DNA of 64,000 nucleotides from Candidatus Bathyarchaeota archaeon. GTDB lineage: Archaea; Thermoproteota; Bathyarchaeia; Bathyarchaeales; Bathycorpusculaceae. The notes below the pieces were generated by a model. The model searched no databases. It had not been told where the DNA came from and saw nothing but the letters and a program-made list of their open reading frames with translations. The translations under genes and the position numbers were made by a program. The stretch's first letter is position 1; every line of letters starts with the position of its first letter. The stretch is taken from NCBI GenBank assembly GCA_963768425.1, contig CAVYHV010000030.1:32001-96000 (forward strand), read 5' to 3'. Of this stretch, positions 33,045-51,918 are shown piece by piece.

Positions 33045-33284
33045 TTAATCGATTATTTCGCCAACTCCGGCTTTTTCACCGACTTGGGTCACCTTTATTT
33101 TCACGCGGTCTCTCGGCTTGGCTTTCGGCACCGTAATAATGTAGCCTTGAATTATTGACATTCCGTCTCCACTTGGACAAACATCGGTAATGTTCACTTC
33201 CAATTCGTCACCCAAGGCAACTGGGGGTTTCTTCTCAACGTGTTTAATCTTGAATTTTCCCCCTCGAACCCTTCTATGGACCAT
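33045..33284 (-). CDS. Single TRAM-domain RNA-binding protein
   Basis: PPVALGDELEVNITD...GDG...QGYIITVP.AKP.D.VKIKV. Confidence 0.85.
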   Translation of the reverse strand: MVHRRVRGGKFKIKHVEKKPPVALGDELEVNITDVCPSGDGMSIIQGYIITVPKAKPRDRVKIKVTQVGEKAGVGEIID

Positions 33285-33444
33285 GCAGAAACCTTGCCTT
33301 GTTCTGTGTAAACAAAGTTAACCGCTTAAGTCTTACGCAACTCATTCTTTATTTGTCACAGTGTTCGTGGGCTGCATGTTAGTTATTTTAAATTGTGTTA
33401 AATTTTTTGGGTTAATGAGGATTGGGTATCCAGTTTTAAAAAGT

Positions 33445-33523
33445 AAGCAAAAGAGGGATGTGTTCCCTCTTGGCTGGGAGGAAACTTCCTCCGTTTTTTA
33501 GTTAGGAGCTCTCCTTTCTCCTT
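33445..33523 (-). ncRNA. Candidate small RNA of three tandem hairpins
   Basis: Hairpins at 33451-33471, 33477-33492 and 33504-33515; TATA-like TTTTAAG on the minus strand at about 33547-33553; T-tract after the last hairpin. Confidence 0.4.
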
Positions 33524-33731
33524 AAAAAAAATATGTTCATTCATCGCTTAAAAGGCATATTTCATTATCAGGAATATATCCAGAGATTACCTTGTAAAGG
33601 CTAGCCAAATTAAAGGATTGAGCTGCTATATTCTGCCCAAAACTTGGGAGCAAGAAGGAAACTAAGGATAAAAAAGTCTTAAATCTGAATAGCGTAGAAA
33701 TAGATCTAACGCATATTTGATGGTGAATTAA

Positions 33732-34208
33732 TTGCTTGTGAGAATGGCGGCTCCTGAAGATTCAGAGCGTATGGCTCGAATTTAACAACGAACTTAGCCC
33801 TTTGCCACGTTTCTTATCACTCTGATATACGAAGTTAAAGAAAACGTGTCCGAGCTGTGCTTGTCTATATAAAGGATAAAATCGAAAAGTCAATATCAGG
33901 AGACGGGCTTGTGCTCGTTGCCCAAGACAAAGGCATAGTTGGTTATTTGAGTTGTTCAGCATCACAGAGCAACTAATCCGAATAGGGAAATTCACAAGAC
34001 TGGTCATATAGGAGGCAGTGTATGTAATTCAGAATATCGTCGTCGGGGAATCGCTGCGGCACTCATGAAGGAAGCTTTGAAATGGATGAAAAACCGTGAA
34101 GTTGAATACGTTGACCTGAACGTTGATGTCCAAAACACCGCAGCTGTTGCAGCATGGACTGCTTTGGGGTTCAAGCCGCACCAGTACAACCTCATCCGAA
34201 AATTATAA
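33732..34208 (+). pseudogene. Degraded GNAT acetyltransferase
   Basis: C-terminal frame EYRRRGIAAALMKEALKWMKNREVEYVDLNVDVQNTAAVAAWTALGF; upstream part broken by stops and shifts. Confidence 0.7.
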
Positions 34209-34336
34209 GCATCTGACTCATGAGCTTTTGAGTTGTTTAGGAAAACTTTTAGGAGAAACTAGCATTAACCCTTCATAATGAGAATCGAAGTCGAAAATCA
34301 CTTCTGAACCTCAAAAATAAGAAATCATGAAAAACA

Positions 34337-34876
34337 TTGGGGTGTCGGATGGTTTATAAGATTTTCAAATTCAAGGACGGAAGAACAGCGACGCTTGATT
34401 GGTTAGAAGAAGACGACTTACCAGAACTTGTGGACGCACTTAACGGTGTAATCCGCGAAGACAAATTTCTCTTGGTGAACACCGTGATAACCGGCATGGA
34501 AGAAGAACGAGAGTGGTTCGAGCGAAGTACGAAAGCAGGCATGCATTACTTAGTAGCCAGGGTCGATGGCAAAGTCGTCGGGGGTGCAAGTATTCACCCT
34601 TTCACTGGCAAACGCTCGCACGTTGCCGAATTCGGTATTTTCATACGCGATGGCTATCGCAACATGGGCTTAGGAACAGAACTAACGAAGACTTTTATCG
34701 AAATTGCCCGCAAAAGCCGGTTCGAAATCATTCAGCTTTCCGTCTACACAACAAATGAACGAGCGTTTCATGTTTACAAGAAATGCGGTTTCAAAGAATG
34801 TGGCAAACTTACGCATGATGTTAAATTTGCAGATGGAACTTACGCTGACAGAATATTGATGGAGTTACCCTTGTAA
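34337..34876 (+). CDS. GNAT acetyltransferase
   Basis: HVAEFGIFI..GYRNMGLGT, NERAFHVYKKCGF. Confidence 0.9.
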   Translation: MGCRMVYKIFKFKDGRTATLDWLEEDDLPELVDALNGVIREDKFLLVNTVITGMEEEREWFERSTKAGMHYLVARVDGKVVGGASIHPFTGKRSHVAEFGIFIRDGYRNMGLGTELTKTFIEIARKSRFEIIQLSVYTTNERAFHVYKKCGFKECGKLTHDVKFADGTYADRILMELPL

Positions 34877-34942
34877 ATACTGAATTTGACGCTGATTTCA
34901 ACTGCTGTGTAGATTGGTCTGCTGACAGAGCAATAGAAATTT

Positions 34943-35437
34943 TTAACCTTTCGCTGTTTGCTTCAACACAGTTTTCCTAGTAAAAAAACCATAACGATTA
35001 TAGAAACCAAAAGCCTGTTCGTTTCCAGCAGCAACCTCTACTATTTTGGCTACTGTACCATTCTCATCCATCCAAGCCAAAACCCTTCTCATAAGATTAT
35101 CCCCAACACCCAAACCTCTATAATTGGAAGCAACAAATAACGATTCAATTTCACCTGTCTTGTCCTCATCAATGCTGCTTACACAGTACCCGACGTTCTT
35201 GCCTGTCATAACATCTGAACCAATATCCACTCTTAATTCGGCGCTCGCGGCTTTTTTTAGCCAATAAGCCTTCCTTTTTTCAAAAGTCATTTCAGCATAA
35301 TCCTGTTTGAAACATGGGGATAACTCAAGATGATGTTGATTCAAACTTTGCCAAAGCGACCTAATACCATCTAGCAAAGCTTCATTGCCACAACCGTACC
35401 GTATTTTGGGCTTATTCTGCATGTCTTCACTTACCAA
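34943..35437 (-). CDS. GNAT acetyltransferase
   Basis: GEIESLFV...YRGLGVG, GNEQAFGFYNRYGF. Confidence 0.9.
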   Translation of the reverse strand: MVSEDMQNKPKIRYGCGNEALLDGIRSLWQSLNQHHLELSPCFKQDYAEMTFEKRKAYWLKKAASAELRVDIGSDVMTGKNVGYCVSSIDEDKTGEIESLFVASNYRGLGVGDNLMRRVLAWMDENGTVAKIVEVAAGNEQAFGFYNRYGFFTRKTVLKQTAKG

Positions 35438-35457
35438 CGAGTAGTGATTGTAGGAAA

Positions 35458-36018
35458 CTATTGTCCTTTAGCGGTTTTTGTCAGTATTTTTGGTTCTTTC
35501 CATTCTTCTCTGAGAATGCTGTACAAAATAGAGTCTCTGAGTTGTCCTCTGAGGAAAAAGGGTTTGCGAATTGTTCCCTCCATCTTGAAACCTGCTTTTT
35601 CCAAAACCTTCTGTGAACCAACGTTTTTCACATCAGTTTGGGCTTGTATGCGCCCTATACTGTTTGAAAGAAACAAGTAGTCCACCATAATGTTGACGGC
35701 TTCTGTGCAGTAGCCTTTGCCTCTTTCAGTGGGAACCATGAAATAACCTATTTCCAATTGGTTTCCCGCAGGATGAATTACGTTGAAATGCCACATGCCA
35801 CCAATTCTGCGTCCATCTTTATCTTCAATGAAGAATTCGGTTTCTTGAAACTTCTTTTCTCCATAATTCTTCTCCATCTCTGTTCTGGACATCTGCATAA
35901 GAGGATTGTATTTACCGAAAACCTCAGGGTTGTTATACCATTCTGCGAGAAACGCCAAATCCTCTTTCTCGACAACTCTCAGATTCACATTTTTGCCTTC
36001 AAGCAACCTGAACACCAA
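35458..36018 (-). CDS. RimJ/RimL-type GNAT acetyltransferase
   Basis: LEGKNVNLR, EIGY....RGKGYCTEA, NVGSQKVLEKAGF..EG. Confidence 0.9.
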   Translation of the reverse strand: MVFRLLEGKNVNLRVVEKEDLAFLAEWYNNPEVFGKYNPLMQMSRTEMEKNYGEKKFQETEFFIEDKDGRRIGGMWHFNVIHPAGNQLEIGYFMVPTERGKGYCTEAVNIMVDYLFLSNSIGRIQAQTDVKNVGSQKVLEKAGFKMEGTIRKPFFLRGQLRDSILYSILREEWKEPKILTKTAKGQ

Positions 36019-36271
36019 TTCAAAATAGTTAAGTCGGTTCAGCTATAACTTTTTCGCAATGAGAGTTGACTGCTATCTGACGCTATTTCTCTTTGCTAAT
36101 GAAGCCGACTGAAACGTCTCCTTGCACTAAAATGGATTTTGTAACTATGAAAACTGGGTACCTGAGTTTATCGCAGACTTCCAAAATATTCAGGAAACAC
36201 AAGCTTTAACGACTTAAAAAACCAAAAAACATCTCTGCCGGGTGGCACTCCCCATGGTTTTACTTATAGCA

Positions 36272-36295
36272 GTGCAAGAGATGAGATTTGCACCC
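36272..36295 (-). repeat. Highly degenerate tRNA-Leu 3'-end copy (att-like scar 4)
   Basis: GTGCAAGAGATGAGATTTGCACCC matches 19/24 nt of GTGCAGGGGGTGGGATTTGAACCC at 44813. Confidence 0.5.
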
Positions 36296-36368
36296 TCACT
36301 GCAGTGGAAATACGGTCGCTTCTCATCATATTCAAAAGCAATGGTTAGGAACGATCTCTTTATTGGAG

Positions 36369-36908
36369 TTAAGGCAAAAGAAGCTCCATCAAAATCCTGT
36401 CGGCGTAAGTTCCATCTATAAACTTAACATCATGCGTTAGTTTGCCACATTCTTTGAAACCGCATTTTTGGTAGACATGAACAGCCCGCTTGTTAGTTGA
36501 AAATGCAGATATTTGAATAATCTTAACACCGCTTTTTCTTGCAACATCTATGAGTTCATTTATCAGTATTGTCCCAAGCCCGCAGTTACGGAAGCCTTTT
36601 GCAATATAAATTGCGAATTCGGCGACATGCGCTTGCTTACCTTTGAAGACCGACATGCTTGCTGCTCCAATTATTTTGCCGTCTACTTTGGCAACGAGAT
36701 CGCGCATTCCAGCTGCTCTGCTTTTCTCAAACCACTCTGGTTCGGAGTCAAGATCGGTTATTTCTTGATCCATTAATAGATAGGTTTTTTCTCTAACTAC
36801 GCTGTTTAGAACCTCAACAAGCTCAAGCAGGTCTGTCGCTTCCAGCCAACTCAAAGAAGCCGCTTGCCCGTTGTTCAAGGTCACAGTCTTAAACTGCAAA
36901 CGAATCAC
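36369..36908 (-). CDS. GNAT acetyltransferase, paralog of 34337-34876
   Basis: Same architecture; shared C-terminus KCGFKECGKLTHDVKF.DGTYADRILMEL. Confidence 0.9.
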   Translation of the reverse strand: MIRLQFKTVTLNNGQAASLSWLEATDLLELVEVLNSVVREKTYLLMDQEITDLDSEPEWFEKSRAAGMRDLVAKVDGKIIGAASMSVFKGKQAHVAEFAIYIAKGFRNCGLGTILINELIDVARKSGVKIIQISAFSTNKRAVHVYQKCGFKECGKLTHDVKFIDGTYADRILMELLLP

Positions 36909-37034
36909 TCCTTTACCTCTTGGAGTAATTTACTGATAAAACCTCCTATAACTACTCAATGTTCGGTAAACATTCTGGTTAATCCAAAAAACTGTTAGCG
37001 CCTAACGTATAGAGAATTGTTAGAAGAGCTCTGA

Positions 37035-37292
37035 TTAAAAGTTGTTTTTTAAATTATTTTTTTGTTTTTCTTTCTTTGAATCTTCGGCTATCTTCATTTT
37101 GGCAAGTTCAGGCTTTTGAATGTGCAAAATTATTGCGTTCGCGTGACCGCGTCCTAGCCCGAAGTCCCCCTTGAGCCAGGCAAGTAGCTCACCATATTTT
37201 CCTAGATCCTTCTCCTTTGCCAACGTTTGGAAATACTCTGGGTCCTTGCCAGTCTTAGCCTTGACATTATCTATGTAGGCTTTGTACGTCAC
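37035..37292 (-). CDS. DUF4287-like small protein
   Basis: YKAYIDNVKAKTGK...WLK.DFGLGRGHANAI; GTG start at 37292 inferred. Confidence 0.75.
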   Translation of the reverse strand: MTYKAYIDNVKAKTGKDPEYFQTLAKEKDLGKYGELLAWLKGDFGLGRGHANAIILHIQKPELAKMKIAEDSKKEKQKNNLKNNF

Positions 37293-37449
37293 AGTTTTCA
37301 CGCAGGAAATATGGTTGAAAGGGCTGCTTAAAAAATTTGTCAATTTAGCATTTCCGATTTCTGCAATAAACAAGGGTTTGCGAAACCAACCCATGAAAGC
37401 GTGTCATCCGTTTTTCGTATTTCAGATCGAAGAAAGTGAAGTCCGATTT

Positions 37450-37475
37450 TGGAGGAAGGGTGTGGATTTGAACCC
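37450..37475 (-). repeat. Degenerate tRNA 3'-end copy (att-like scar 3)
   Basis: TGGAGGAAGGGTGTGGATTTGAACCC retains the T-arm complement GGATTTGAACCC. Confidence 0.55.
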
Positions 37476-37523
37476 TAGGAAGCGGAAAGATTTTGGTCCA
37501 GTTTGATTTGAATGATGAGCATA

Positions 37524-38631
37524 CTATAGTTTTTTGAAGTCTTCCAATGCGTCCTTGAGATCCATTGCTGCGTTGAAAGATAGATCATCAGTGTCATATT
37601 CAATTCTTCTTAGACCCTTAAGATTTAGAGGCAGATCTATTTTTCTCTCAACTAACAAAACAACTTGCTTACTATATTTCAGATAAGCTGCATCGATTTC
37701 AGAGGTGACATTTGAATTTATGATGTAAAGTCCACTGTACCTTCTCTCCTGTTCAGCGGCAGCGATATTTATTATTGCACAATCACAGTCCTCCATAACT
37801 CCAAATTTATTGTTAGGAATTGGCACAGTTGTTTCTTCTTTATCACCCATTACATAGTCGTAATGAAGAAAATCTAACATTTTCATTATTTGGTCAGAGA
37901 CTTGGGTTTTGCTGTTAGATATGAAGACCCGAGGTTTCAGTTCTTCTTTTTGGGGCTCATTTGGCGTTCTTTCAGTAAAAGTCGCTGTTTTTGTGACTTG
38001 GTCGTCTGGCATATATGCAGGTGCAATGTCAAACGTAACCTGTAAACGGGCAAGGTCTCTGAATTCGATCAGCATAGCGCTTATTCACTAGTTCATTTAC
38101 GCGTAGTAACTCAAGTTCAATTTCATTATCCATAGCCATTATTTTTCCCTCAGGGGCATCGTTATCATAATCGAATGCTACAATTGTGCCCTTTTGTGCT
38201 CTTCCCTTTATTAACACTTTAACAAAAGCTTCAACCTCGGCCAAGCTGACAGGATCAGATTGTTTAATCAAAAGAGGTTGACCTCCCTCGGTAAACCCAT
38301 TTACTCCCGAAGATGGGTCGCTTGGCTTACCGTTGAATTTTTTGATTACCCACGCTTCGAAGTCACGGGGTGAAATTCTGCTGAGGCTCTTTTCATTCAC
38401 CCGCTTCTTTAAAACAAATACAGACGTGACTCCAACAGCAACTGCTACAACCGCTACGATTCCAACGATAAGGAATAAGGCATTGGAACCTCCAAATATT
38501 GATGCTTTGGTTGGGGTTGGCGGTGTTGTAGAGATTGGTGTTGATGTTTGACAATAAGATATTTGTGAAAAGACAATAACTGAAAAAAGAAAACACGTTA
38601 CAAAAATGGCTAAGAGCAATTTTTTATTCAT
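37524..38631 (-). CDS. Membrane-anchored protein with Mrr-like nuclease-fold domain and C-terminal TIR-like domain; 1-nt frameshift near 38062
   Basis: Signal peptide, Thr/Pro linker and TM; PRDFEAWV...GVNG...LIKQS...KGTIVAF; then PRVFIS...CDCAII...NSNVTSEI..AY...VVLL...LPLNLKGL. Confidence 0.65.
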
Positions 38632-38862
38632 ATTTTTGCATCCCCTAATATGGATAGTGGTTAACTCCTGACCATAGGTAAATGCCTACAGTGATTGGAA
38701 AGTTATTGGCATATCGCCTTAAAAAACTATTGAAAAGAAACTTGTGTCTCAAACTCACTTGTTAATGTTCGTCATCAATTTCTTGTTTACAAAAATAATG
38801 AGAGCATGGATAAGGATGCGTCTGTTTCTGCGGAAATATGCCTTTTACATTTTTGCTTATGT

Positions 38863-38901
38863 TGGTGCAGCGAGTGGGATTTGAGCCCATGAACCCTGCG
38901 G
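38863..38901 (-). repeat. Degenerate tRNA-Leu 3'-end copy (att-like scar 2)
   Basis: TGGTGCAGCGAGTGGGATTTGAGCCCATGAACCCTGCG versus intact GTGCAGGGGGTGGGATTTGAACCCACGAACGCCTGCG. Confidence 0.75.
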
Positions 38902-39046
38902 ATGGCCGCCAGTACAAAAATACTGGATGAAACGGCTCACAAAGTGGGGGTTCTTTTCATAAAAGATTTACATTTGTTCACCGATAAATACAAACAGGCG
39001 CTTGAATGGCTGAAACGTTTTCGGTTTCAAAGCTAAAGCTTAGCTG

Positions 39047-40343
39047 TTGGACAAATCAAAAGGAGATGACTTAGCTTTGACAGAACCAAAATCGAAAGGG
39101 ACCAAGGGTCCTCTTCGAGTGCTCCGAAACCGCAACTTTACTCTTCTTTTCTATGCGGGCGCCGCTTCCACCGGGGGCTTTTCCCTTGGACAGGTGGCCC
39201 TTACATGGCTGGTATACGTCACGACTGGTTCGGCGCTTGATGTCGCCTACGTTGCTCTGTCAAGTACGGTAGCATCTGTTCTACTCAGCGTGATCGGCGG
39301 TACCTTGGTTGATAGACAGAACCGTAAATGGCTGATGATACTCTCTGATTTGCTAAGAGCCCTTGGGCTTGTAGTACTCGCGGTGTATCTATATTTTGCA
39401 GGATTCAGCTTGCCCCTTGTACTGGTAGTCTCCTTTGTTCTGGGCACTTTCTCAACAATTTTTAACCCCGCGCAGAGAGCAGTGATTCCATCGATTCTTA
39501 AATCTGATGAAGTTGCTGACGCTAATGGTCTAGTGCAGGTTGCAAATTCGGTCTTCCAATCTGTAGCAAGCGCGGCTGGCGGTGCTATAGTGGCGACAAT
39601 AGGCGCTGTGGCCGCTTTAGGGATTAACGCGACAACATTCGCCATCTCTGCTGTGCTTACTATGTCTATGACTCTTGGTGCTCTTGTGAAACCCAGTCTG
39701 ACAGCGCTTTAATGGAGAAGTTCGCAAAGGTTTTGTTTCTGACGCCGCCGACGGAGTCAAATACATAACTTCTAACAAGGGACTGCTTTATCTGACTGTT
39801 TCAGCCGGATTTATCAACCTATTCTTCGCCATGATAATACCATTTGTTGTAGTCTACGCCACCAATGTGCTGAACGGCGGCGTGGCTGTTTATGGCTCCT
39901 TGCTTGCTGCTTTTGCAGTAGGGATGGCGCCTGGCGCGCTTCTTGTGGGAAGAACCAAGGCGGTTGCTTATGCAGGCATTGTCTGGGGAGCCACTGGACT
40001 CTTGGCGGGAGCGGCAATGCTTTTGTCAGCGTTCACTCGAAGTTTCATCGTTGCGTTTGTGCTATTTCTCGTCGTCGGGGTCATTTCTGGATATGCAAAC
40101 GTAACTTGGCTCTCTGCAGTTCAGCTCATTGTGCCCTCCGAGATGCAGGGCAGGTACTTCGGTGTTGACCAACTGGGGAGTTTTGCGGTTATGCCAGTCG
40201 GGCAAGTTTTGGGTGCCTTTATAATCCAAAGCATGAGTGTTAAGACCGACTTTATAGTCGCTGCTGTAGGGATATCTGTAATTTCCCTTGTGTTCCTCTT
40301 ATCGAAGGATATGCGGGCGGTTGGCTACTCAGCAGAGAAATAA
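39047..40343 (+). CDS. MFS efflux transporter (MefA/EntS-like), split near 39710
   Basis: LRNRNF, WLVY.TTGSA, GGTLVDRQNRK..MILSDLLR, FNPA..A.IP; QLIVPSEMQGR. Confidence 0.85.
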
Positions 40344-40382
40344 AGAAAACTAATGTGGGTAGGTAAATTGAGGTTGAATTAG

Positions 40383-41237
40383 ATGAATGCGAAGGGAAAA
40401 GTGGAGGCGTTTTCTGACTTGCTCAAACCAGAGCTCCCATTAGCAGCGGGCATTTGCGTGATAGCTGGCGAAATCATTTCGTCTGGTAACCTGCCAACAT
40501 TTGCTCAGCTACTTCTAGGTTTTCTAACAGGCTTCTTTATTTCAGGAACAGCCATGATTACTAATGATTACTTCGACTTATCTGTAGACAAAATCAACCA
40601 CCCTGACAGGCCGCTGCCATCGGGGCGAATCACTGTTTTTGAGCTAACCCTAGTTGAAGGCTTGTTTTCTTTTGCTGGGTTTCTAGCGGCTGCACTCTTG
40701 AATTTAACCCTGCTCATTGTAGCTTTAGTCATATGGACAATCGGTCTCCTTTACAATTGGCGGATTAAGGAAACAGGGCTGCTTGGAAATATGATAGTTG
40801 CTTTTTCAGTGGCCAGCACTTTTGTTTTCGGAGGGCTGGTGGTAGGCGGTTTGTTTAGTGGTATTGTTTGGACTTTTGGTAGTTTAGCGTTCTTGTTCGA
40901 TTTAGGCGAGGAGATTGCCGGCGGTGCCATGGACATTGAAGGCGACAAGCTACGGCATGCTCGAAGTCTAGCCATTCTTAAAGGAAGGAATTTCGCTTTG
41001 CGGGTTTCGGGTTTGCTGTTCGCTGCCTTTGTAAGTTTGAGTTTTCTTCCTTTTTTAGCAGGTTGGCTGGGCAATCTTTATCTTGCTTTAGTGGCAGCCT
41101 CGGATCTAGGTGTTGTTTACTTCACTTTTAGGTTGTTAACAAGCCAGACCCCGCGAGAAGGAAGAAAAAGAATCCGCGAACTCTACCTCACGCTAACAAT
41201 CGCTGTCATAGCTATTGTCATTAGTCGGTTGATTTAA
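40383..41237 (+). CDS. UbiA-family prenyltransferase (DGGGP synthase-like)
   Basis: NDYFDLSVDKINHPDRPLPSGRI, GLLGN, EI...MDIEGD. Confidence 0.85.
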   Translation: MNAKGKVEAFSDLLKPELPLAAGICVIAGEIISSGNLPTFAQLLLGFLTGFFISGTAMITNDYFDLSVDKINHPDRPLPSGRITVFELTLVEGLFSFAGFLAAALLNLTLLIVALVIWTIGLLYNWRIKETGLLGNMIVAFSVASTFVFGGLVVGGLFSGIVWTFGSLAFLFDLGEEIAGGAMDIEGDKLRHARSLAILKGRNFALRVSGLLFAAFVSLSFLPFLAGWLGNLYLALVAASDLGVVYFTFRLLTSQTPREGRKRIRELYLTLTIAVIAIVISRLI

Positions 41238-41407
41238 GGAGAGGACCTTGGGCGATATCGAACCGTATTGTTTATCTGGAGGTTTAAGCCCAACCAAAGT
41301 GAATTACCCTACATTTTATTTGCTAAGAAGCAGGAAATAGCAAGAAACAAGCAGAAAACACGCAAAAAGTGCTGGGAGTGGAGCTTCATGTTGTTTCTAT
41401 GCTCTCT

Positions 41408-41870
41408 TTATCGGGCATTTCTTTTCCAAGACATTTTAGGAACTATTGAATTAACGGCATTTTTATAATCTAAATAAACTTTTCCAAACTCTTGTTCTAA
41501 GTACCGCTCTTCCTCAATTATTAGCCTCTTAATCAATACATACATTATGAAGGGCATTATCATCAAGAATAAAACTCCAGTAGCCAAGAACAAACCTGGC
41601 ACAATGAATAAGATCCAAGCAGCATAAACTGGATTTTTGAGTGTAAGCGTATATTCCACCTGTGATGAGCCTTCCATGGTTGAAAGCTTGATGTACTTGA
41701 AAGGTTGCTAAAAACATCAAGTAGAGACCAAACGCAACAACGCCGATTCCGAACCAAAACCTAAATTCATTAAAAGTAAAAACTAATTTTGGGAAAAAAT
41801 AATAATTAGCAAAAATCAGTAAAAGACCCAGTACTAAAGATATGATTGCGAATTTTGGCCGACACCCCAA
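41408..41870 (-). CDS. Isoprenylcysteine carboxyl methyltransferase-family membrane protein, frameshifted
   Basis: LITGGIYA...NPVY and IEEERYLEQEFGKVYLDYK in adjacent frames. Confidence 0.75.
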
Positions 41871-41923
41871 CTCGTCATCCTATTTGGTTCATGCGTTGAC
41901 ATTACTTTGACTAATCTCTGTTT

Positions 41924-42334
41924 TTACGTGACTTCGTGCGCTACCCATTTCTCGTCTATCCAAAGACCGAGGGTTTCCGCCCTAAGACCCCATGACCGAA
42001 CTGTCCATATCGACTCTAGAATTTGTTTCATCTGCGTTGCTTTTTCTACAGGATTTCCGGCGCAGTCATGATGGCCAACAATTACGATATGAACCGAACC
42101 ATGTTTCCCTGTAGAGATTTCAACTCTTCGTTTGATAGATTCAACCGTCGGCTTATCGGTATTTTCAGCTAAAACCCTGATTGGGCCAGGCTCCGTGATC
42201 ATATCAACGTAGTCTACATTGTACTTTTTACGAATGTAGTCGATAACTGGAATCTGCGTTCGCCCATCCATGCAGTTAATAGCGGTAGCAAAACTTCCAT
42301 GGCTCATATACTTACTTCGCCTCACACATTCCAT
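41924..42334 (-). CDS. Putative beta-like carbonic anhydrase
   Basis: CMDGR, DMITEPG and GHHDCAGN zinc-ligand pattern; start probably 42307. Confidence 0.75.
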   Translation of the reverse strand: MECVRRSKYMSHGSFATAINCMDGRTQIPVIDYIRKKYNVDYVDMITEPGPIRVLAENTDKPTVESIKRRVEISTGKHGSVHIVIVGHHDCAGNPVEKATQMKQILESIWTVRSWGLRAETLGLWIDEKWVAHEVT

Positions 42335-42396
42335 GGTTATTACTCAAGTTAAATTTAACGATCCAAAACCTCTTTTCTCCATGGAGTTTGTTATAA

Positions 42397-43098
42397 CTAT
42401 GGGATGGCAAAGTTGAAGGAAACAAAGCCGCCTTGTCCATAGGTAGAAAGCCAAAAAGTATAGTTTCCAGAAGGCAAAGTAGTGTTAAAGTCAAAAATCA
42501 GAGTCTGTTCATCTCCAGGCGGTAACCTGTAAAGAAAATTCATTGTCATATAATGATGCCCCATACCATCTAGCTCTGTAGACTCAACCCAGTCGCTATT
42601 AATTTGTGCCACAATGGTTTGATTGTAAGCTTTAACGAATGCTCTATCAAAATCAATCTCATAATAGTAAAAGGATTTCGCGTCAACTAAAAATGTGAGC
42701 GGATTAGTGCTGTCTACTCTAAAGTTGGTTATTGCGAGTTTCTCCGTTTGTTGGGAGGAGAGAACTAAAGATGATGAAAAAAGCGTGCCAAGAATTAACA
42801 ATGGAATTAGAACAACAGTTAGTATAGCAAAAACAGTCCTGTGCTTCTTGTGAGATTGCATGATAGTACCTATAGTCCCAACTACGAGAAGGGCTGTTCC
42901 AGCTATTATGGTGAAAAAGAAGAAAGAATCAAGTCTAGCCCAATCAAGATACGAGTCACCTAATAATATCTGTACTGACAGAAGCTTAGCCGACCATGTT
43001 TGTTCCCAATAGAAAACTATAAAGAAGATACCTATTAGGACAGCACCTAAAACTGCAAGAATACCGAACAAGAGCTTTGAATTTTTTAACATCAGCAA
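42397..43098 (-). CDS. Hypothetical membrane protein with C-terminal beta domain
   Basis: Three TMs followed by an Ig-like region. Confidence 0.55.
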   Translation of the reverse strand: MLMLKNSKLLFGILAVLGAVLIGIFFIVFYWEQTWSAKLLSVQILLGDSYLDWARLDSFFFFTIIAGTALLVVGTIGTIMQSHKKHRTVFAILTVVLIPLLILGTLFSSSLVLSSQQTEKLAITNFRVDSTNPLTFLVDAKSFYYYEIDFDRAFVKAYNQTIVAQINSDWVESTELDGMGHHYMTMNFLYRLPPGDEQTLIFDFNTTLPSGNYTFWLSTYGQGGFVSFNFAIP

Positions 43099-43161
43099 AT
43101 TTTATCATAGAAGTCGATATAAATTTTCTGAAGTCTCGATTCAGTGACGATAAATGTGCTA

Positions 43162-43196
43162 GTGCAGGGGCGGGATTCGAACCCGCGAACCTCTGC
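43162..43196 (-). repeat. tRNA-Leu 3'-end copy (att-like scar 1)
   Basis: GTGCAGGGGCGGGATTCGAACCCGCGAACCTCTGC: intact T-arm with a compensatory change relative to the 44.8-kb tRNA. Confidence 0.85.
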
Positions 43197-43228
43197 AAAA
43201 TAACTCTACGATTTTAATAATAGGGGCG

Positions 43229-43792
43229 TTAGGGGTTTTTGTTTATTTCGTGGCGTATCCACCAGATGAGGCCTATAGCTGAGGGAACCGCGGCGATGGC
43301 GGCTATCCATATCAGGATTGTAATCATTGACCCGACCACGTAGTTCAGCGTGAAAGTTGATATGGCAGTGTTCCAGTTTCCGTCAACATACACCTTAATG
43401 GCGAATGCGACGAAGAGTAGTGGCGAGATTAAACCGCCCGCGTTTCTGGACCGCGACCCCTTGCCAAAGTTGTATGCGCTTTTTTCCTGTTCTGGCAGTC
43501 TCCGCCACCATTGCCAGGCTATCGCTGCGCCGACGAGAGCTGGAATGCCGACCAGCAGCAGTTCCCAAAAGACAGCGTTCAGGATGAACATCACCACATT
43601 ACCCATAGACCATAAGCCCAAGTTTGAAGGAACCAGATTGGAAGTCTGCGCTTGCCCGGTGAACCATGCAAAGACATAAACTCCTCCGATGCTTGCTGTG
43701 ATACCTACTGCTATGAATATGGCGAGGGCTCTCCAGTGTTTTGAGAGGAACATTTTCCCGCCTGTCTGCGCTGTGGATTGTTGAGTCATCAA
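43229..43792 (-). CDS. Hypothetical Trp-rich membrane protein
   Basis: About four TMs; probably co-transcribed with the upstream DUF996-like gene. Confidence 0.6.
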   Translation of the reverse strand: MMTQQSTAQTGGKMFLSKHWRALAIFIAVGITASIGGVYVFAWFTGQAQTSNLVPSNLGLWSMGNVVMFILNAVFWELLLVGIPALVGAAIAWQWWRRLPEQEKSAYNFGKGSRSRNAGGLISPLLFVAFAIKVYVDGNWNTAISTFTLNYVVGSMITILIWIAAIAAVPSAIGLIWWIRHEINKNP

Positions 43793-43814
43793 ATCCCTCT
43801 CCTACGCCGGTTGT

Positions 43815-44445
43815 TTAGACTGGTGGTTGAGATGGGGAAGCGAGAGTGTTTGCGTATCCTGTCTGCTGCTGGGTGAATTGTTGGTATTGGCGAGATTTCA
43901 TGCTGAAGAAACCCATGGTGACAAATATCCAGGCGACGAATATCAGTACCAACCCGACGAGCACGATGGTAAGTATTGATCCAATCCAAAGTAGAGTGCC
44001 TGCCGTCGCAAACGATGATTCACCGGATTTTTGGGCGAGCGAGTCAAGTGCTCTTTTCAGATGCGATGCCGCGAGGACGTAGAATACGAAGGCGACAACT
44101 AGGCCAGCCAGTAAAGCCGCGACGCCGACGCCGAACCCGACTGTGGGAACGAAGTTTTTGAATGTGAAGTCTGTTGCCGATGCGACGCCAATCATGACTG
44201 CCACTATGGCTGCTGCCGCTGCAACAACCGCTACCACGTAGAATTTCACGCCTGTGAGCGTGTTCTGGTAGACGTTTTGGTCTTGATAGTATTTTGAGAG
44301 TTCCTTCATTCCGATGACAAGAAGGACCACTCCTACTATTGCTAATACCCAGCCGGGCGTAGGGAACAAAGCCCAATAAAAGAAGGATTGCTCCGACGCC
44401 AGCCAACGTTTTACTGTGTTCGAAACTTTCATTCATCATATTCAT
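43815..44445 (-). CDS. DUF996-like membrane protein, frameshift near 44360
   Basis: KTLAGVGAIL; LAIVGVVLLVIGMKELS.YY; FATAGTLLWIGSILTIVLVG. Confidence 0.75.
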
Positions 44446-44495
44446 TTTTTATGCCTCCATTTTTTCTGTGAAGGCATAGGTATGGTCATGCGCGG

Positions 44496-44559
44496 TATAG
44501 CCCTAACTTTTGGAATTATAGCTCTAACAATTAGACCTGTAAACTCTAACAGTTAGAGT
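44496..44559. promoter_or_regulatory. Tandem palindromic operator array upstream of the DUF996 operon
   Basis: CTCTAACAATTAGAC (44522), perfect ACTCTAAC-A-GTTAGAGT (44543) and half-site CCCTAAC (44501), spaced 21-22 bp. Confidence 0.55.
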
Positions 44560-44813
44560 CGCAAAAGCCAACATTGTGAAGCCTGAAGGCCGCGTCTTTC
44601 GACCAAACTTGCAAAATCAAAATGCGGTTGTGCATGGGGTTAGATCTAAACCCAAGTCTAAATTTAACGAGCAAAACCCTAATCGCTCTAACTATGAAAG
44701 TGTTCGTCCGATATTTTTCAAGGTAAATCCGGCGAGATTTAAACCAAAGACGAATTCAGGGTCGTCCAATCCATGGCAACGCTTTTAGAAACAGGCAGAA
44801 AATAAGCAAAAAG

Positions 44814-44898
44814 TGCAGGGGGTGGGATTTGAACCCACGAACGCCTGCGCGATAGGGTCCTAAGCCCTACTCCTTTGACCAGACTTGGAGACCCCTGC
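44814..44898 (-). tRNA. trnL: tRNA-Leu(TAG), no intron, CCA not encoded
   Basis: Cloverleaf GCAGGGG/CCCCTGC-A, anticodon arm TAGGG-CTTAGGA-CCCTA, long variable arm, T-arm GTGGG-TTCAAAT-CCCAC. Confidence 0.96.
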
Positions 44899-45151
44899 AC
44901 CTGTTTTTGTTGATTCGAGTATTCTTTGTCTTGCTAATTTATTAACATGAAGTGTTGTCAGCGGGCAAAAGCGAAACGATGTTGCATTTTTCTTTAATGG
45001 CAAGCGAAAACCGCATTTTTTGTTTCATTGGCTTTTTTCATTTTCAGTCTACTCTCCACTGCTATGAAGTGTCGTTTCCGATGATACCTTAAAAGGCTGA
45101 ACGGTTTACTTTGGTTTCCTCGTTGGGTTTCGAAACGTTGGGTTTGGCAAG

Positions 45152-45466
45152 GTGTGTGTTATGTCGGAGGATCAAGGGAATTTAGATGAGCTCATAGTGA
45201 TGGAGCGTGAAGTGATGGCTGAATTGAAAAAGATGTTCGGTGATCCGGCGCTTTCAACTTTGGAGAGGGTTCGGGTTGCTAATGCTCTTGCTTATCACGC
45301 TGTGGTTTTGAATAGGCTTCAATCGAAAAAAGGTGAGGACTCCTTGTTTGATGAGGATAATTTGGGCGATTTTGTTGCTGGAGCCCACTATGCAGATGGG
45401 CCGATGCGTAGACGGATTAGAAGGGACTTTAGAGATTGGACGAGACGAATTTCGTTGAAAAAGTAA
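45152..45466 (+). CDS. Small helical protein overlapping the terminase gene; candidate terminase small subunit
   Basis: About 100 aa, amphipathic helices, overlaps the TerL start by 31 nt; function inferred from position only. Confidence 0.55.
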   Translation: MCVMSEDQGNLDELIVMEREVMAELKKMFGDPALSTLERVRVANALAYHAVVLNRLQSKKGEDSLFDEDNLGDFVAGAHYADGPMRRRIRRDFRDWTRRISLKK

Positions 45467-46899
45467 CAAACGACATGGAGTTTACAGCTTCGGTATGTGA
45501 GGGTTTACTGCAGAAACCTAAAGCGCTAAAACAGCTGGTGGCCTACAAAGAAGTTACTGACAAACTGATCAAAGACCCAGTGTTTTTCGCAGTGTTAATG
45601 TGCGGCGACAAATGGCTTACTCAAGCGCCTGAGCACCAGAAACTTCTTCGAGACGTCAACTCAAAACAGGTTGCGGTCTGCGGCAGAGGATGGGGCAAGA
45701 GCCGCGTCTTTAGCCGAAAAAATCTCTGGTTACTCTACACTAAACCCAAAATAGAAAGTTTGATAGTAAGCAGCACTCAGCGCCAATCGATGATTATGTT
45801 TGACTACTGCTACTCAACCATCATGTCCAATCCACTGCTAAGAGAGATGGTTCAAAGACCCGGAACAACCCACACAATAATAAAACTGAAACCGCCCTTA
45901 GGCGGCCGAATAGTTGCTTTGCCCTGCTCAAAAGACAAACTCAGAGGATACCACCCAGACTACATCTTCATTGACGAAGCATCGATTGTTCCAAGCGAAA
46001 TGATAACAAGCGAAATAATGATGATGCTAACAAAGCCAAAAGCAAGCTTAATCATGGGTGGAACGCCCATGGGGTCAGACCATGTTTTTCGCAAAGCCTT
46101 TCTAGATTCAAAACGTTACAGCGTACATCATTACGCAAGCTACCAAAGCCCCCTTGTCAGCGAAACGCAACTAGACGAGTGGAAAGAAGTAATGACCCGT
46201 GAAGAATGGCAACGTGAGGTTGAAGCAATGTGGGTAGAATCCACGCACACGTTCTTTTCTATGGATCTGATTGTGGGCTGCGTCGATCCTGACTTAGGTG
46301 CATCCAACGCTTACATTGAGGACATGGAAAAAGCTAAGCCGGAGCAGCTTAGAGGACAATTTTACGCTGGCTTAGACTTGGGCAAACAAATCGACTACAG
46401 TGTACTGGCAATTGTACAGAGGTTTGACAGCGGCGAAGTAAAGCTTGTGCATAAACGTCAACTGCCGCTTGGCACCAATTACCCCCAAGTCATCGGCTAC
46501 GTAGCTAGGGCAAGCCAAATCTTCCATTTTGAAAGGATAAACGTGGACAAAGGCGGAATAGGCGACGCCATAGTAGACGAATTACGCAAAGCCAACATAT
46601 ACGGTGTCGAAGGCATTTTCTTCACCGACACAGAAAAAGAAAACATGCTAAACACCCTTAAACTTTTCATGGAAAAAAGAATGCTAAAGATCACTGCAGA
46701 TGACAAAGCGCTAATCGCGCAAATCAACGAGCAGCAATATGAGTATCTGCAGCCTAAAACAGCCCAGGAATGCATACACCTCAAATTTTGGCATCCGCAG
46801 GGAAAACACGACGATCAACTGATGGCTCTAGCATTAGCTTGCCGTGCAGCTTCAAGAGCAGCGCCACCCGGTCGAGGCGCCGTTATGGGCGGAGATTGA
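45436..46899 (+). CDS. terL: Phage terminase large subunit-like protein (ATPase plus RNase H-like nuclease)
   Basis: Walker A CGRGWGKS, LRGYHPD, Walker B IFIDEA, coupling motif GTPMG, nuclease AGLDLG, VDKGGIG, HDDQLMALALA. Confidence 0.9.
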   Translation: MDETNFVEKVTNDMEFTASVCEGLLQKPKALKQLVAYKEVTDKLIKDPVFFAVLMCGDKWLTQAPEHQKLLRDVNSKQVAVCGRGWGKSRVFSRKNLWLLYTKPKIESLIVSSTQRQSMIMFDYCYSTIMSNPLLREMVQRPGTTHTIIKLKPPLGGRIVALPCSKDKLRGYHPDYIFIDEASIVPSEMITSEIMMMLTKPKASLIMGGTPMGSDHVFRKAFLDSKRYSVHHYASYQSPLVSETQLDEWKEVMTREEWQREVEAMWVESTHTFFSMDLIVGCVDPDLGASNAYIEDMEKAKPEQLRGQFYAGLDLGKQIDYSVLAIVQRFDSGEVKLVHKRQLPLGTNYPQVIGYVARASQIFHFERINVDKGGIGDAIVDELRKANIYGVEGIFFTDTEKENMLNTLKLFMEKRMLKITADDKALIAQINEQQYEYLQPKTAQECIHLKFWHPQGKHDDQLMALALACRAASRAAPPGRGAVMGGD

Positions 46900-46950
46900 A
46901 CCGCAAAAACCAAAACAAAAACTATGGGAAATATTTGAAGGAGAAAAAAA

Positions 46951-47191
46951 CATGGGGAAGGTACTTTCATTCGGAATATTAGAGTTTGATGGCGAAAAAA
47001 TATCGTATTCTTACTGCAGAGGTGAAAAAATACCAAACAGCGACGAATACAACAATTACATAGAAACATATTATGGCGGTCGAATTTGCGTTGATGACCA
47101 TGGATTCGGTTTAGACCATGCAATCAATTTGCTGAAAAATGAAATTTCAACTCGTAAGTCAAATCAGAAAGGTCTCCGACCGGAGAGGTAG
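46951..47191 (+). CDS. Hypothetical small protein
   Basis: GGAG Shine-Dalgarno then MGKVLSFGILEF...; part of ORF 46844-47191. Confidence 0.45.
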
Positions 47192-47276
47192 GTTCTCTCT
47201 TGTGTGTACAAGCCGACCGGTCGGTCAATGTATATACACTTTGTTGATACAGTTTGTTGATACAGGTGACTTGGGT

Positions 47277-47616
47277 TTGGCTAAGATGCTTAAAGCGTTT
47301 AGATTTAGTCCTCAACTTTACGGAAGTTTTAGAGAATTAGCGTCAAGAAATGGCTATACAGTAACTTCAGCTTTTGAAAAATTCATGTCCAAATCGCTCG
47401 AATACGGTCTGGTCTTTCCATCAGCCCCTAAAATCGAAAATGTGGAACCAGAGGCTCGAGTTATGCTTGCTTGGCTTAAAGACGGCAAGTACTGGGTTAG
47501 TCTTGGAGGCAAAACTGAGACCAGCACACGGGGGCGTCTTTTGCAACTATTACCTAACGTTGAAGATGCGGACTTAAGGCTCGATATTGAAGAGACACTG
47601 AAAAAAGAAGCCGTAG
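47277..47616 (+). CDS. Putative ribbon-helix-helix-type DNA-binding protein
   Basis: GGTGA Shine-Dalgarno; N-terminal KAFRFSPQLY..FRELA..NGYTVTSAFEKFM strand-helix-helix pattern; true stop probably TAG 47614-47616 after a poly-A indel. Confidence 0.5.
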
Positions 47617-47703: not shown

Positions 47704-47780
47704 GCCTTCGTAGCCTAGCCCGGTGGGGCGTTACCTTGGTAAGGTAATGGTCGCGGGTCCAAATCCCGCCGAAGGCTCCA
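47704..47780 (+). tRNA. trnT: tRNA-Thr(GGT), CCA encoded
   Basis: GCCTTCG/CGAAGGC-T-CCA, anticodon arm TTACC-TTGGTAA-GGTAA, T-arm GCGGG-TCCAAAT-CCCGC. Confidence 0.95.
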
Positions 47781-47801
47781 ATTCTCAAAAAATGCATATA
47801 T

Positions 47802-48056
47802 ATGCATATGCACATAGAAAGTGCCATGACTAAAGTCATATCTCTCTCCAACGAAGCATATCAGACTCTTAAGGAATCCAAAAAACCCGGTGAGTCTTTT
47901 TCAGACGTAGTTCTTAGAATCGCAAAGAAGAAGAAAAAGAAGTCACTTTTGGAGTTTTCAGGCAAATGGGTGGGCGACGATGCCGATGAAGTGCTTTCAC
48001 AGATAATGAAGGACAGAGAGAGGTCAGCTTACGAAAAGGTCGACTTATTTCCGTGA
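47802..48056 (+). CDS. vapB: VapB-type antitoxin (DUF217-like)
   Basis: TKVISLSNEAYQTLK..KKPGESFSDVVLR; start probably 47826. Confidence 0.88.
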   Translation: MHMHIESAMTKVISLSNEAYQTLKESKKPGESFSDVVLRIAKKKKKKSLLEFSGKWVGDDADEVLSQIMKDRERSAYEKVDLFP

Positions 48057-48440
48057 TTCTTGACACTGACGCGCTAATTGCACTCTTGAACGGTGAATCT
48101 GCAGCAGACGAAGCAGTTCGTCATCTGGAAGAAAAAGATGATAAAGTTGCGACCACAATTATTTCGGCATATGAACTTCTAAGGGGAGCCCATATTTCAT
48201 CTGAACCGGAGAAACCTAGCCGAAGCTCGCGAGTTGTTATCAAACATAGAGATTTTGGACTTGACACTGCAAGCCTGCGAAGAAGCTTCGAAAATTTACT
48301 GCGATCTTCGGAAGAAAGGTTGCTTGATCGGCGAAAACGACATGCTTGTGGCAGGAATTGCAAAAGCGCATGCCGACGCAGTTATGACGCGAGATACACA
48401 TTTTAAGCTTATTTCAGCGATAACTGCAGTTGAATGGTAG
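48053..48440 (+). CDS. vapC: VapC PIN-domain toxin, frameshift near 48210
   Basis: ILDTDALI, ISAYEL..G; shifted frame continues LRKKG.LIGENDMLVAGIA...MTRD.HF. Confidence 0.85.
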
Positions 48441-48538
48441 CATAGCTGCTTGAGGAGCATTTACTAATCACAACATATTTGCAGCCGAACGGTTACCCAA
48501 AGGTTTTCACTTCGGGACCTTGCACGAACGATGAGCAT

Positions 48539-49305
48539 TCAAGCTTGGCAGGAAATGTCAACTTCGCCCAAAGTTGCAGAGGCCAACTCGTTGGGAAAGT
48601 CAAAGATGCTGATCAGCTGATTGAGCTCGGTTACCATTTCATGCGGTTTAATGATAGAGTTAATAGCGGTTCTTCGCATGATCTGCACTGATGTTAGTCC
48701 AGCGTTTCTTGCGCCCGCGATGTCGGTTTCAAGCGTGTCTCCCACGAATAGCGCTTTTGCAGGTTGGACGCCTAAGTGTTGAAGCGCCATGCTAAAAATC
48801 TGGGGATGAGGCTTGCGGAGGTTTATGTCTCCGCTGACAATTATGAGGTCCAAGTGTCTGTTGAGTTCAAAGCGTTCCACGAGTTCCCAAGCGAACTCGG
48901 AAAAAGTCAAGTTGGAAATTACTGCTGTTTTGCATCTTTTGTGGAGAAACTCTAAGACTTCGAGCGCTTGGGGATCTAGTGAAATGTGTTGTGCGAATTC
49001 CTTGGAGAACTCTTTGGCAGCTTGCATCGCCAGATGGGTTTGTGCTTTGAGCTTTGCCCCCAAGCTGGCTAGAAACTCGCTCGACATAAATTGAAAAATG
49101 CGGCTCTTCGAGCGTGCAGGCTGTTTCGGCGCTGATTTCTTTTTCAACTATCATGTAAGCCGATTTGAAATCGCCAAAAGAGCAATCAAGACCATTGCGT
49201 GAGAGGTAGGTATGCATCATAAGGAGGCTTTGGGCGAGTGAGATATTGTAGTCGTCTATTAGAACTAGAGTGTCGAATAGGTCAAACAAGACAGCTTCAA
49301 AACAT
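48539..49305 (-). CDS. HAD-superfamily hydrolase, frameshifted
   Basis: AVLFDLFDTLV motif I; ISN, RKPHPQIF, FVGDTLETDIAGARNAG. Confidence 0.85.
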
Positions 49306-51911: not shown

Positions 51912-51918
51912 CAACGGT

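Follow-up and report, generated by a model that had tools for sequence, protein, structure and literature searches.

Tandem copies of a tRNA-Leu 3' end in a Bathyarchaeia genome as probable scars of repeated integration

How do small groups of genes, with no intact integrase among them, come to lie one after the other between partial copies of a single tRNA gene? The question is raised by a 64-kb stretch of DNA (GC 44.5%; contig CAVYHV010000030.1) which is called here the window and from whose first base all coordinates are counted. The window is from a Bathyarchaeia archaeon; the Pfam run on 89 window open reading frames (ORFs) recovered archaeal informational genes (Pcc1, RNA polymerase N and D with its Fe-S domain, diphthamide synthase), the ribosomal proteins S13, S4, L18e, L13 and S9, and a RuBisCO large-subunit gene. 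It holds a tRNA-Leu(TAG) gene on the minus strand, downstream of which an earlier note, made from the sequence alone, had reported a ladder of tRNA 3'-end copies delimiting integrase-less gene islets. Our analysis indicates that this array probably results from repeated site-specific integration at tRNA-Leu followed by integrase loss, leaving units that resemble cis-mobilizable elements (CIMEs).

Related loci were collected by running a pattern made from the D and anticodon arms of tRNA-Leu against a species-representative genome collection. This gave 31 loci (numbered with the prefix L), of which 30 are labelled Bathyarchaeia or Bathyarchaeota and one Limnocylindrales. None is identical to the window; the nearest, L029 and L023, have 88-93% nucleotide identity to it around the tRNA. 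In most loci tRNA-Leu and a tRNA-Thr gene are divergent neighbours a few hundred bases apart.

Copies of the tRNA-Leu 3' end and breaks in gene content

The repeated core is the last ~36 nt of tRNA-Leu, from the variable loop through the 3' end, and copies were sought by Smith-Waterman alignment (+2/-3/-4) with these 36 nt as query. In the 64 kb, same-strand matches end at 44630 (score 25), 43162 (41), 38865 (46), 37458 (31) and 36272 (23), and all remaining same-strand matches score 22 or less; the best on the opposite strand are tRNA-Thr itself (25) and one other (23). Thirty dinucleotide shuffles of the window set the chance level, with means per 64-kb strand of 0.3 matches at a score of at least 23, 0.07 at 25 or more and none at 31 or more, the maximum being 25. 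Given these rates, five matches within 8.6 kb on the correct strand are far above chance; two copies are so individually, and two weaker ones were confirmed through the relatives. The earlier note had named matches at background frequency as grounds for giving up its proposal. This is contradicted by the scan and the shuffles and also by the wider count, made over the window and the 29 loci holding the whole tRNA-Leu, in which 20 same-strand copies scoring at least 24 lie in the 219 kb downstream of the tRNA versus 3 in the 234 kb upstream. Ladders of two or three copies recur in L001, L004, L005 and L022.

The four copies reported earlier, all in the orientation of the tRNA, are indeed present; they are called here copies 1 to 4 (rungs 1 to 4, at 43162, 38865, 37451 and 36272). 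Two further rungs were added to them: rung 0 at 44630, and rung 1b at 41369, which came from a repeat search (41343-41381 against 44787-44825, 34 of 39 positions identical). The rung 1b match consists of the final 13 tRNA nucleotides (41369-41381) and a 26-nt T-rich trailer, and it divides the 4.3-kb islet that lies between copies 1 and 2. Judged by its sequence, rung 1b appears to be a truncated, old tRNA-proximal junction (local alignment scores of 79 and 62 to the tRNA-downstream DNA of L004 and L023, respectively). There are thus six same-strand copies within 8.6 kb below tRNA-Leu. They share one orientation, most of them stop at the same tRNA position, none includes the 5' half of the tRNA, and those within the window differ from each other at five positions or more. 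Rfam recognised only the two tRNAs of the window; at copy 1 it gave a T-arm match below threshold.

Identity to the tRNA end is 30/36 for copy 1, 31/36 for copy 2, 29/40 aligned columns for copy 3 (37452), 25/37 for copy 4 and 23/38 for rung 0. In copies 1 and 2, therefore, 30-31 of 36 positions are preserved and the T-stem is still paired; copies 3, 4 and rung 0 are much altered. The proposal that copies are progressively more decayed with distance did not hold, since the nearest rung (44630) is the most divergent and since copy 4 is closer to a scar of L025 (29/37) than to its own tRNA (25/37). Other details of the earlier description stand. The islet sizes of ~1.65, 4.3, 1.4 and 1.2 kb are right for the copies then listed; with the extra rungs, the units become ~0.18, 1.4, 1.8, 2.4, 1.4 and 1.1 kb with 0-3 genes each. 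The nearest strong copy (43162) does have a compensatory T-stem change (GCGGG/CCCGC instead of GTGGG/CCCAC in the tRNA), and its derivation from a different tRNA allele is reasonable, as its GCAGAGG variant is common to an L005 scar and occurs in 0 of 31 resident tRNAs.

Gene content between relatives breaks at the scars, which is the test that the earlier note had set beforehand for its own claim. Comparison with L010 gives breaks at copies 2 and 3, comparison with L023 at the tRNA and at copy 1, and the breaks against L029 and L004 fall at the tRNA end and at rung 0, respectively. In L010, the TIR-like gene of islet 3 is intact and lies directly after tRNA-Leu. The window aligns with L010 from precisely the 5' edge of the copy 2 core to ~10 nt past copy 3 (78.7% over 1304 nt by blastn; 77-79% amino acid identity by tblastn), and an ortholog of copy 3 at +1347 in L010 bounds the same gene. 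In L023, the flank below copy 1 is ~97% identical to that of the window, and above it (on the tRNA side) lie 5.1 kb of unrelated genes and a scar of a different type. This different cargo and scar above a shared flank point to two independent insertions before one and the same flank. L029, which is 88-93% identical upstream of tRNA-Leu, diverges immediately past the tRNA 3' end. Finally, window 44630-44736 is 81% identical to a segment of L004 that lies there 2.36 kb below the tRNA, as against 183 nt in the window, so that in L004 an extra 2.2 kb separates the tRNA from the rung-0 segment common to both. A rung-0-like copy is also present at +2830 in L005, where it bounds an integrase-carrying element.

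The extent of the variable region can be estimated from a conserved TRAM-domain gene (33045-33284), which is 1.6 kb from the tRNA in L008, 3.4 kb in L010 and 11.4 kb in the window. Because this gene is near the tRNA in L008 and L010, the variable region of the window probably spans ~33.4-44.8 kb.

Integrase genes, integrase remnants and scar types

No integrase ORF was found in the 64-kb window, either by Pfam on the 89 ORFs or by a six-frame hidden Markov model (HMM) search. Relatives were examined with Pfam on 234 ORFs downstream of tRNA-Leu and then with tblastn. In L002 (427 aa), L005 (436 aa) and L017 (432 aa), Pfam located a Phage_integrase gene immediately past the tRNA and reading towards it; an Xer-like 325-aa protein in L014 and a fragment in L016 were recovered as well. 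With tblastn, the family of L002, L005 and L017 was found frameshifted in L011 and L016, and reduced to C-terminal pieces that abut the tRNA in L007 (99 aa), L022 (58 aa), L029 (38 aa) and L018 (17 aa); a second piece in L022 (33 aa) adjoins an internal scar. At the N-terminus, these integrases bear a zinc-binding domain with four cysteines, which is of the IS1/IS1595 kind; their catalytic part is Xer-like and sub-threshold for archaeal XerA. The family is large (3440 proteins at E<=1e-10 among 6079 candidates) and many of its members are on contigs of 1.3-6 kb. L005 provides a compact intact element composed of the tRNA, the integrase, a 99-aa ORF, an AHSA1-domain gene and the scar at +2830, beyond which follow a PIN-domain pair and a second scar at +3659.

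The window retains a trace of this family beside copy 4. A plus-strand frame (36081-36209) ends with SKIFRKHKL and a stop codon (KIFRKHKL-stop at 36183-36209), and the final eight of these residues also close the L029 stub. It lies ~62 nt below copy 4, in the orientation that the integrase gene has in relatives. In L029, the DNA running from the tRNA end through the spacer to the end of the integrase gene aligns with copy 4 and the 90 nt below it (73.9% over 115 nt, E 4.5e-14); the same DNA of L002 aligns with copy 4 and its downstream sequence (70.7% over 116 nt, E 1.2e-8). The stub is weak in protein searches taken alone (tblastn E 4.3, hmmsearch E 3.6); we accept it because position, orientation and DNA alignment combine. 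Describing the islets as integrase-less was thus correct in that the window contains no intact integrase, and incomplete in that a C-terminal stub persists near copy 4 and relatives encode the enzyme.

The scars are not merely mutated ends of resident tRNAs, as they include element-specific sequence that is absent from the tRNA. A partly palindromic GCGGGTGAYRTCTCCA-like motif, itself absent from the tRNA, stands 6-12 nt above the T-arm part of 11 scars; its carriers are L007, L018, L023, L024, L025, L004, L022, L001 and window copy 4 (36295-36320). The motif accompanies integrase stubs in L007, L018 and L022, and it is probably a binding site on the arm of the element. Since copy 4 carries this stub-associated motif, islet 4 probably came with the zinc-ribbon integrase family. 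We also tried to read the motif together with the T-arm as a miniature tRNA with an acceptor stem; pairing proved inconsistent and no covariation was seen by eye, and this reading was set aside. Copies 1 and 2 begin in the variable loop, as do the scars L005b and L001b, and the GCAGAGG variant mentioned above is that of copy 1 and L005b. Rung 0 represents a third type, common to L004 and L005. With at least three scar types, several element lineages must have used the tRNA-Leu site.

Below the scars, two classes of sequence can be distinguished. The first is an integrase-type spacer, which follows the tRNA in seven loci and also three internal scars, copy 4 included. The second is the T-rich trailer, which follows the tRNA in L004 and L023, of which the window has the first 26 nt after tRNA-Leu and ~100 nt at rung 1b. 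In blastn with the tRNA and its downstream DNA, the trailer is common to L023 (66 nt, 94%) and L004 (57 nt, 96%).

Origin of the array

The explanation that we consider probable, integration repeated at tRNA-Leu and followed by integrase loss, would proceed as follows. An element would recombine its own tRNA-like site with the tRNA gene, thereby rebuilding the tRNA, and would land directly after it, so that the previous 3' end and everything behind would be pushed away. Repetition of such events would give a tandem array with a partial tRNA copy at every junction, the DNA above each copy belonging to a newer element and the DNA below to an older element or to the chromosome. In relatives, the chief enzyme observed at the site is the zinc-ribbon tyrosine recombinase of 427-436 aa, whose gene is beside the tRNA and converges on it. 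Integrase genes would then be lost by frameshift and deletion while cargo and scars persist, and the C-terminal stubs beside the tRNA resemble a series of deletions whose extent on one side is set by the need to keep the tRNA. The window now has at least six integrase-less units of 0.2-2.5 kb and one integrase stub. We infer that each window islet had an integrase of its own on arrival, and likewise the order of the events and the present immobility of the units. The sequential accretion proposed in the earlier note agrees with this account, the copies being attachment-site scars of successive insertions at which gene content breaks.

Several observations weigh against it. Only one of the seven window junctions (the tRNA and six rungs) keeps an integrase trace, and at copy 1, where 64 nt separate the scar from the start of the next gene, both integrase and spacer would need to have been cleanly removed. 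Of the 16 units of relatives that are closed by two scars, 11 are without integrase (Pfam, tblastn), and no hidden integrase was detected in the integrase-less units of relatives at lenient thresholds. The integrase-less 5.1-kb unit of L023 looks recent, because its scar matches the tRNA perfectly over 29 nt. A strict order with the newest element beside the tRNA fails, because islet 3 has other distal neighbours in the window than in L010, and insertions or deletions at internal scars are needed. No scar for the distal boundary of the GNAT block was found, nor any further rung, as no tRNA-end copy scoring 16 or more is present in 33.0-36.25 kb. Finally, split genes cannot serve as evidence of decay, because genes that are presumably core are split too. 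Within the island, the MFS (39047-40343), ICMT-like (41408-41870) and TIR-like (37524-38631) genes are each in two ORFs; outside it, an Opp ATPase, another MFS and a PMT gene are likewise split (22532-23750, 26672-28025 and 58038-59881). The split genes reflect either many frameshift errors or a genome with widespread pseudogenes.

Part of these observations would be expected if integrase-less cassettes were still moving at tRNA-end sites, with an integrase supplied in trans or, by accretion, in cis; we regard this as unlikely. It would account for the lack of integrase in most closed units (the 11 of 16 in relatives and all but one of the window junctions), for the L023 unit with its perfect 29-nt repeat, and for islet 3, a one-gene scar-bounded unit that has different neighbours on both sides in two genomes. 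The scar-arm motif is common to integrase-less and stub-bearing units, so that the same enzyme could in principle recognise both, and the integrase family is, as its 3440 members show, abundant. Against this, no integrase was detected within the window, and parts of the core are missing from the two distal copies. The identity of islet 3 to L010 (78.7%) is close to that of the core TRAM gene (80.9% at the nucleotide level), which fits vertical inheritance and not recent transfer, and the series of decaying integrases is a simpler origin for integrase-less units. The integron-like recombinase acting in trans that the earlier note proposed is, as stated there, unsupported, because relatives carry an integrase encoded in cis, in forms from intact to a 17-aa stub, and the window has a stub at copy 4.

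A bolder version takes the divergent tRNA-Leu/tRNA-Thr pair as an archaeal cassette platform, at which recombinase-less units of one or two genes are inserted, excised and reordered at any rung by co-resident integrases. We hold it to be quite improbable. It keeps some credit because most closed units are integrase-less, the L023 unit is apparently recent and the neighbours of islet 3 differ; if true, it would amount to an integron-like or CIME-like shuffling of genes built on tRNA ends.

The ladder might also be an assembly artefact, in which different population variants were wrongly joined where the tRNA end is repeated. The lineage is uncultured, the window has many split genes, and the L013 and L027 contigs, which stop no more than 2 nt from where the core begins at its 5' edge, show that assemblers struggle there. 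We nevertheless judge this very improbable, given that ladders of the same type occur inside long independent contigs (L022, 557 kb; L004, 188 kb; L001, 107 kb) and that copies differing at five or more positions would not easily collapse or be mis-joined. As a side observation, the L013 and L027 contigs end at position 52 of tRNA-Leu and that of L019 ends 20 nt past the tRNA; assemblies break at the repeat.

That the copies are chance T-loop matches or leftovers of local tRNA duplication has next to no probability. In favour of this reading, the two distal copies score just 31 and 23, many tRNAs contain GGTTCAAATCC, and other parts of the window also reach scores of 20-23. Against it, the shuffles gave 0.3 matches at 23 or more per strand and none at 31 or more, orientation is uniform with most copies ending at the same tRNA position and no 5' half of the tRNA, copy 3 has its ortholog in L010, copy 4 runs into an integrase spacer and stub, and synteny breakpoints coincide with the copies.

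Island contents, surroundings and related systems

The features of the island are collected in Table 1. Islet 1 has a GC content of 0.489 versus 0.45 in its flanks, and there is hardly any cargo between rung 0 and tRNA-Leu. The UbiA gene of islet 2b is also recognised by NCBIfam (PRK12884, E 5.8e-92), and it is oriented, like the MFS gene, opposite to tRNA-Leu.

Table 1. Features of the tRNA-Leu island and the neighbouring tRNA-Thr gene (window coordinates)
Feature	Position	Strand	Evidence or remark
tRNA-Thr(GGT)	47704-47780	+	ARAGORN
tRNA-Leu(TAG), attachment target	44813-44898	-	ARAGORN; Rfam tRNA, 53.7 bits
T-rich trailer, 26 nt, directly after tRNA-Leu	44787-44812	-	Repeated at 41343-41368
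Rung 0: divergent "class C" copy (44630-44667) and ~120 nt of element arm	44630-44786	-	Smith-Waterman score 25
Islet 1: DUF996 protein (43815-44432), 187-aa membrane protein (43229-43792)	43197-44629	-	Pfam DUF996, E 4.3e-28
Rung 1 (copy 1): "class A", GCGGG/CCCGC T-stem, GCAGAGG variable loop	43162-43196	-	Smith-Waterman score 41
Islet 2a: 233-aa membrane protein (42397-43098), Pro_CA_2 (41924-42334), ICMT/PEMT-like (41408-41870, two ORFs)	41382-43161	-	Pfam
Rung 1b: last 13 tRNA nt and ~100 nt of trailer	41270-41381	-	Repeat search, sequence, local alignment
Islet 2b: UbiA prenyltransferase (40383-41237), MFS_3 in two ORFs (39047-39712, 39831-40343)	38900-41269	+	Pfam
Rung 2 (copy 2): "class A"	38865-38899	-	Smith-Waterman score 46; 31/36
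Islet 3: one membrane-anchored TIR-like gene in two ORFs (38029-38631, 37524-38075)	37487-38864	-	Homology to L010
Rung 3 (copy 3): decayed, T-loop kept, acceptor end lost	37451-37486	-	Smith-Waterman score 31
Islet 4: DUF4287 (37035-37394), GNAT acetyltransferase (36369-36908)	36307-37450	-	Pfam
Rung 4 (copy 4): decayed "class B", TGCAAAT loop as in L024/L025	36272-36306	-	Smith-Waterman score 23; 25/37 to tRNA, 29/37 to L025 scar
Integrase remnant: ~62-nt spacer and C-terminal stub	36081-36271	+	Translation; DNA alignment to L029/L002
GNAT block: GNAT genes (35458-36018, 34943-35437, 34337-34876) and two small ORFs	33400-36080		Pfam; GC 0.409

The gene labels given earlier were borne out by Pfam for DUF996, Pro_CA_2, UbiA, MFS, DUF4287 and GNAT; ICMT and TIR have only sub-threshold matches. 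The ICMT match is weak (E 0.03) and falls on the second of two overlapping ORFs. The match of the TIR-like protein to PF10137 is below the family cut-off both in the window (E 3e-3) and in the intact L010 ortholog (E 2.4e-4). The TIR label has further support from an Atlas cluster (score 0.97) into which the protein falls, made up of Bathyarchaeota proteins of which 27% carry PF10137; its sequence had no meaningful match among solved structures. When the islet proteins were sought around the tRNA of the other loci, only the TIR-like protein (in L010) and, on the Thr side of L016, a distant DUF996 protein were recovered. A defence island was considered and set aside, PADLOC having no match in the tRNA-Leu island; its only matches, an HTH protein and a nucleotidyltransferase, are on the Thr side.

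The GNAT block, which ends at the TRAM-domain gene, is probably the oldest part of the island, with a distal boundary drawn only from TRAM synteny. The run of GNAT genes spans window 33762-36908, the GNAT of islet 4 being 59% identical to that at 34337-34876; a possible broken fifth GNAT at 33762-34195 comes from sequence reading only, and Pfam gave neither of its ORFs a GNAT match. A 22-nt match (86%) to the rung-0 arm (44659-44680), containing TTAAATTTA, is present at 42350-42371 on the minus strand, ~16-37 nt upstream of the Pro_CA_2 start codon (42334), and could be a scar remnant or a TATA-box-like promoter.

Between the divergent tRNAs, where most relatives have a few hundred bases, the window has a 2.8-kb block (45144-47612, plus strand). 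One of its genes, at 45436-46896, encodes a protein that resembles the large subunit of terminase (PHROG phrog_2, E 5e-37), and three further ORFs belong to no family. No capsid or portal gene was found near the terminase-like gene. The block is common to L029 (88% at the nucleotide level; terminase 93% at the amino acid level) and, in part, to L023.

tRNA-Thr has a ladder of its own (47704-55726, plus strand), with same-strand 3'-end copies that finish at 54965 (score 44), 55726 (59) and, weakly, 54214 (27). Window 47781-54939 is an insertion, because L029 has the equivalent of window 54939-55991 directly after tRNA-Thr; it carries VapBC, HTH, AsnC, flavodoxin and methyladenine glycosylase genes, among others. 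A VapB/PIN (VapC-like) pair lies directly after tRNA-Thr (47802-48403, plus strand), and similar Thr-side pairs occur in L008, L022, L030 and L031. In L004 and L016, the tRNA-Thr elements end with an SSV-type integrase ORF (PF16795) which starts inside the distal tRNA-Thr copy; the gene thus sits at the far end of these elements, and the site inside the integrase ORF, a feature of the SSV type, is found at tRNA-Thr in these two loci. No SSV-type catalytic part was found on the Thr side of the window, and no integrase within 3 kb of tRNA-Thr among 40 ORFs of at least 150 aa, in the 24 loci where the tRNA-Thr motif was located.

At tRNA-Leu the arrangement differs from the SSV type. The attachment site is beside, not inside, the whole integrase gene in L002, L005 and L017, so the enzyme is not split by integration, and no such ORF spans the tRNA-Leu copies of the window. 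We looked for a split integrase there by means of ORFs running through the copies, tblastn and the six-frame HMM search, and only the copy 4 stub was recovered; the open frame across several copies comes from T-arm sequence without a stop in that frame. An article by She et al. of 2001, "Gene capture in archaeal chromosomes", reportedly described elements trapped at tRNA genes with no intact integrase. The likeness to the present island is that "suicidal" SSV-type integrases also leave elements trapped at tRNA genes without an intact integrase (PMC7253208, in its available text).

Other known systems share part of the picture, as far as the available portions of their descriptions go. The ssrA islands of Dehalococcoides lie in tandem downstream of one small-RNA gene and are bounded by direct repeats of its 3' end; an integration module is beside the gene-proximal end in 16 islands and absent in 15, and its authors suggest that the module-less islands are possibly cis-mobilizable elements (PMC3146451). 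They have a short conserved non-target motif just upstream of the repeat, like the scar-arm motif here, and they differ in being bacterial, in targeting tmRNA, in using a serine recombinase within a six-gene module, and in being larger, with dehalogenase genes (PMC3146451). CIMEs and accretion in Streptococcus follow the same steps and result in tandem arrays, and the absence of an integrase ORF from every window islet matches the integrase-less character of CIMEs; however, the Streptococcus elements derive from conjugative ones, of which no transfer genes are seen here, and their cis-mobilisation was shown experimentally (PMC5704250). The two distal scars of the window are probably too decayed to act as sites.

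The comparison with a tycheposon-built island, made in the earlier note, is fair as an analogy, given the partial tRNAs between tandem elements and the fragmented integrases. In the tycheposon islands of Prochlorococcus newcomers also push older elements inward, and fragmented integrases and stray partial tRNAs are described; tycheposons, however, are cyanobacterial and have replication modules and a distinct recombinase family (10.1101/2020.12.28.424599, in its available text). Pfam detected no replication module of that kind (helicase/primase), either in the islets of the window or in the L002 and L005 elements that carry an integrase. A further difference is that the present integrase has an N-terminal zinc ribbon and matches archaeal XerA only below threshold. 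An integron, to which the array had also been likened, can be rejected. There is no intI-type platform (no tyrosine recombinase in 64 kb) and a tRNA gene stands at the head of the array; its units are bounded by copies of a tRNA 3' end instead of attC-type sites, and genes face both ways, UbiA and MFS being reversed. In archaea, elements with tyrosine recombinases are described as re-using one site and forming arrays, and integrated elements without integrase are attributed to loss after integration (review PMC8371274; Thaumarchaeota survey PMC6563490, both in their available text). Those cases are mostly larger proviruses, plasmids and cryptic elements with about two copies, in contrast with the at least six very small units present here.

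The principle by which such islands are built is therefore already known, and it is seen here in Bathyarchaeia; we found no description of this hot spot in that class in the open-access literature, and the mobile elements of Bathyarchaeia have, in the available parts of the sources, been described mainly as viruses and large proviruses. The array shows how accessory genes accumulate in this abundant and uncultured archaeal class. It provides a concrete hot spot, the divergent tRNA-Leu/tRNA-Thr pair, with a zinc-ribbon tyrosine recombinase acting at the Leu side and an SSV-type one at the Thr side. The elements concerned are unusually small, the one of L005 amounting to 2.8 kb with the integrase and two genes. 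Contigs break at tRNA-Leu because of the scar repeats, and the scars themselves are ready markers for flexible regions in the metagenome-assembled genomes of the lineage.

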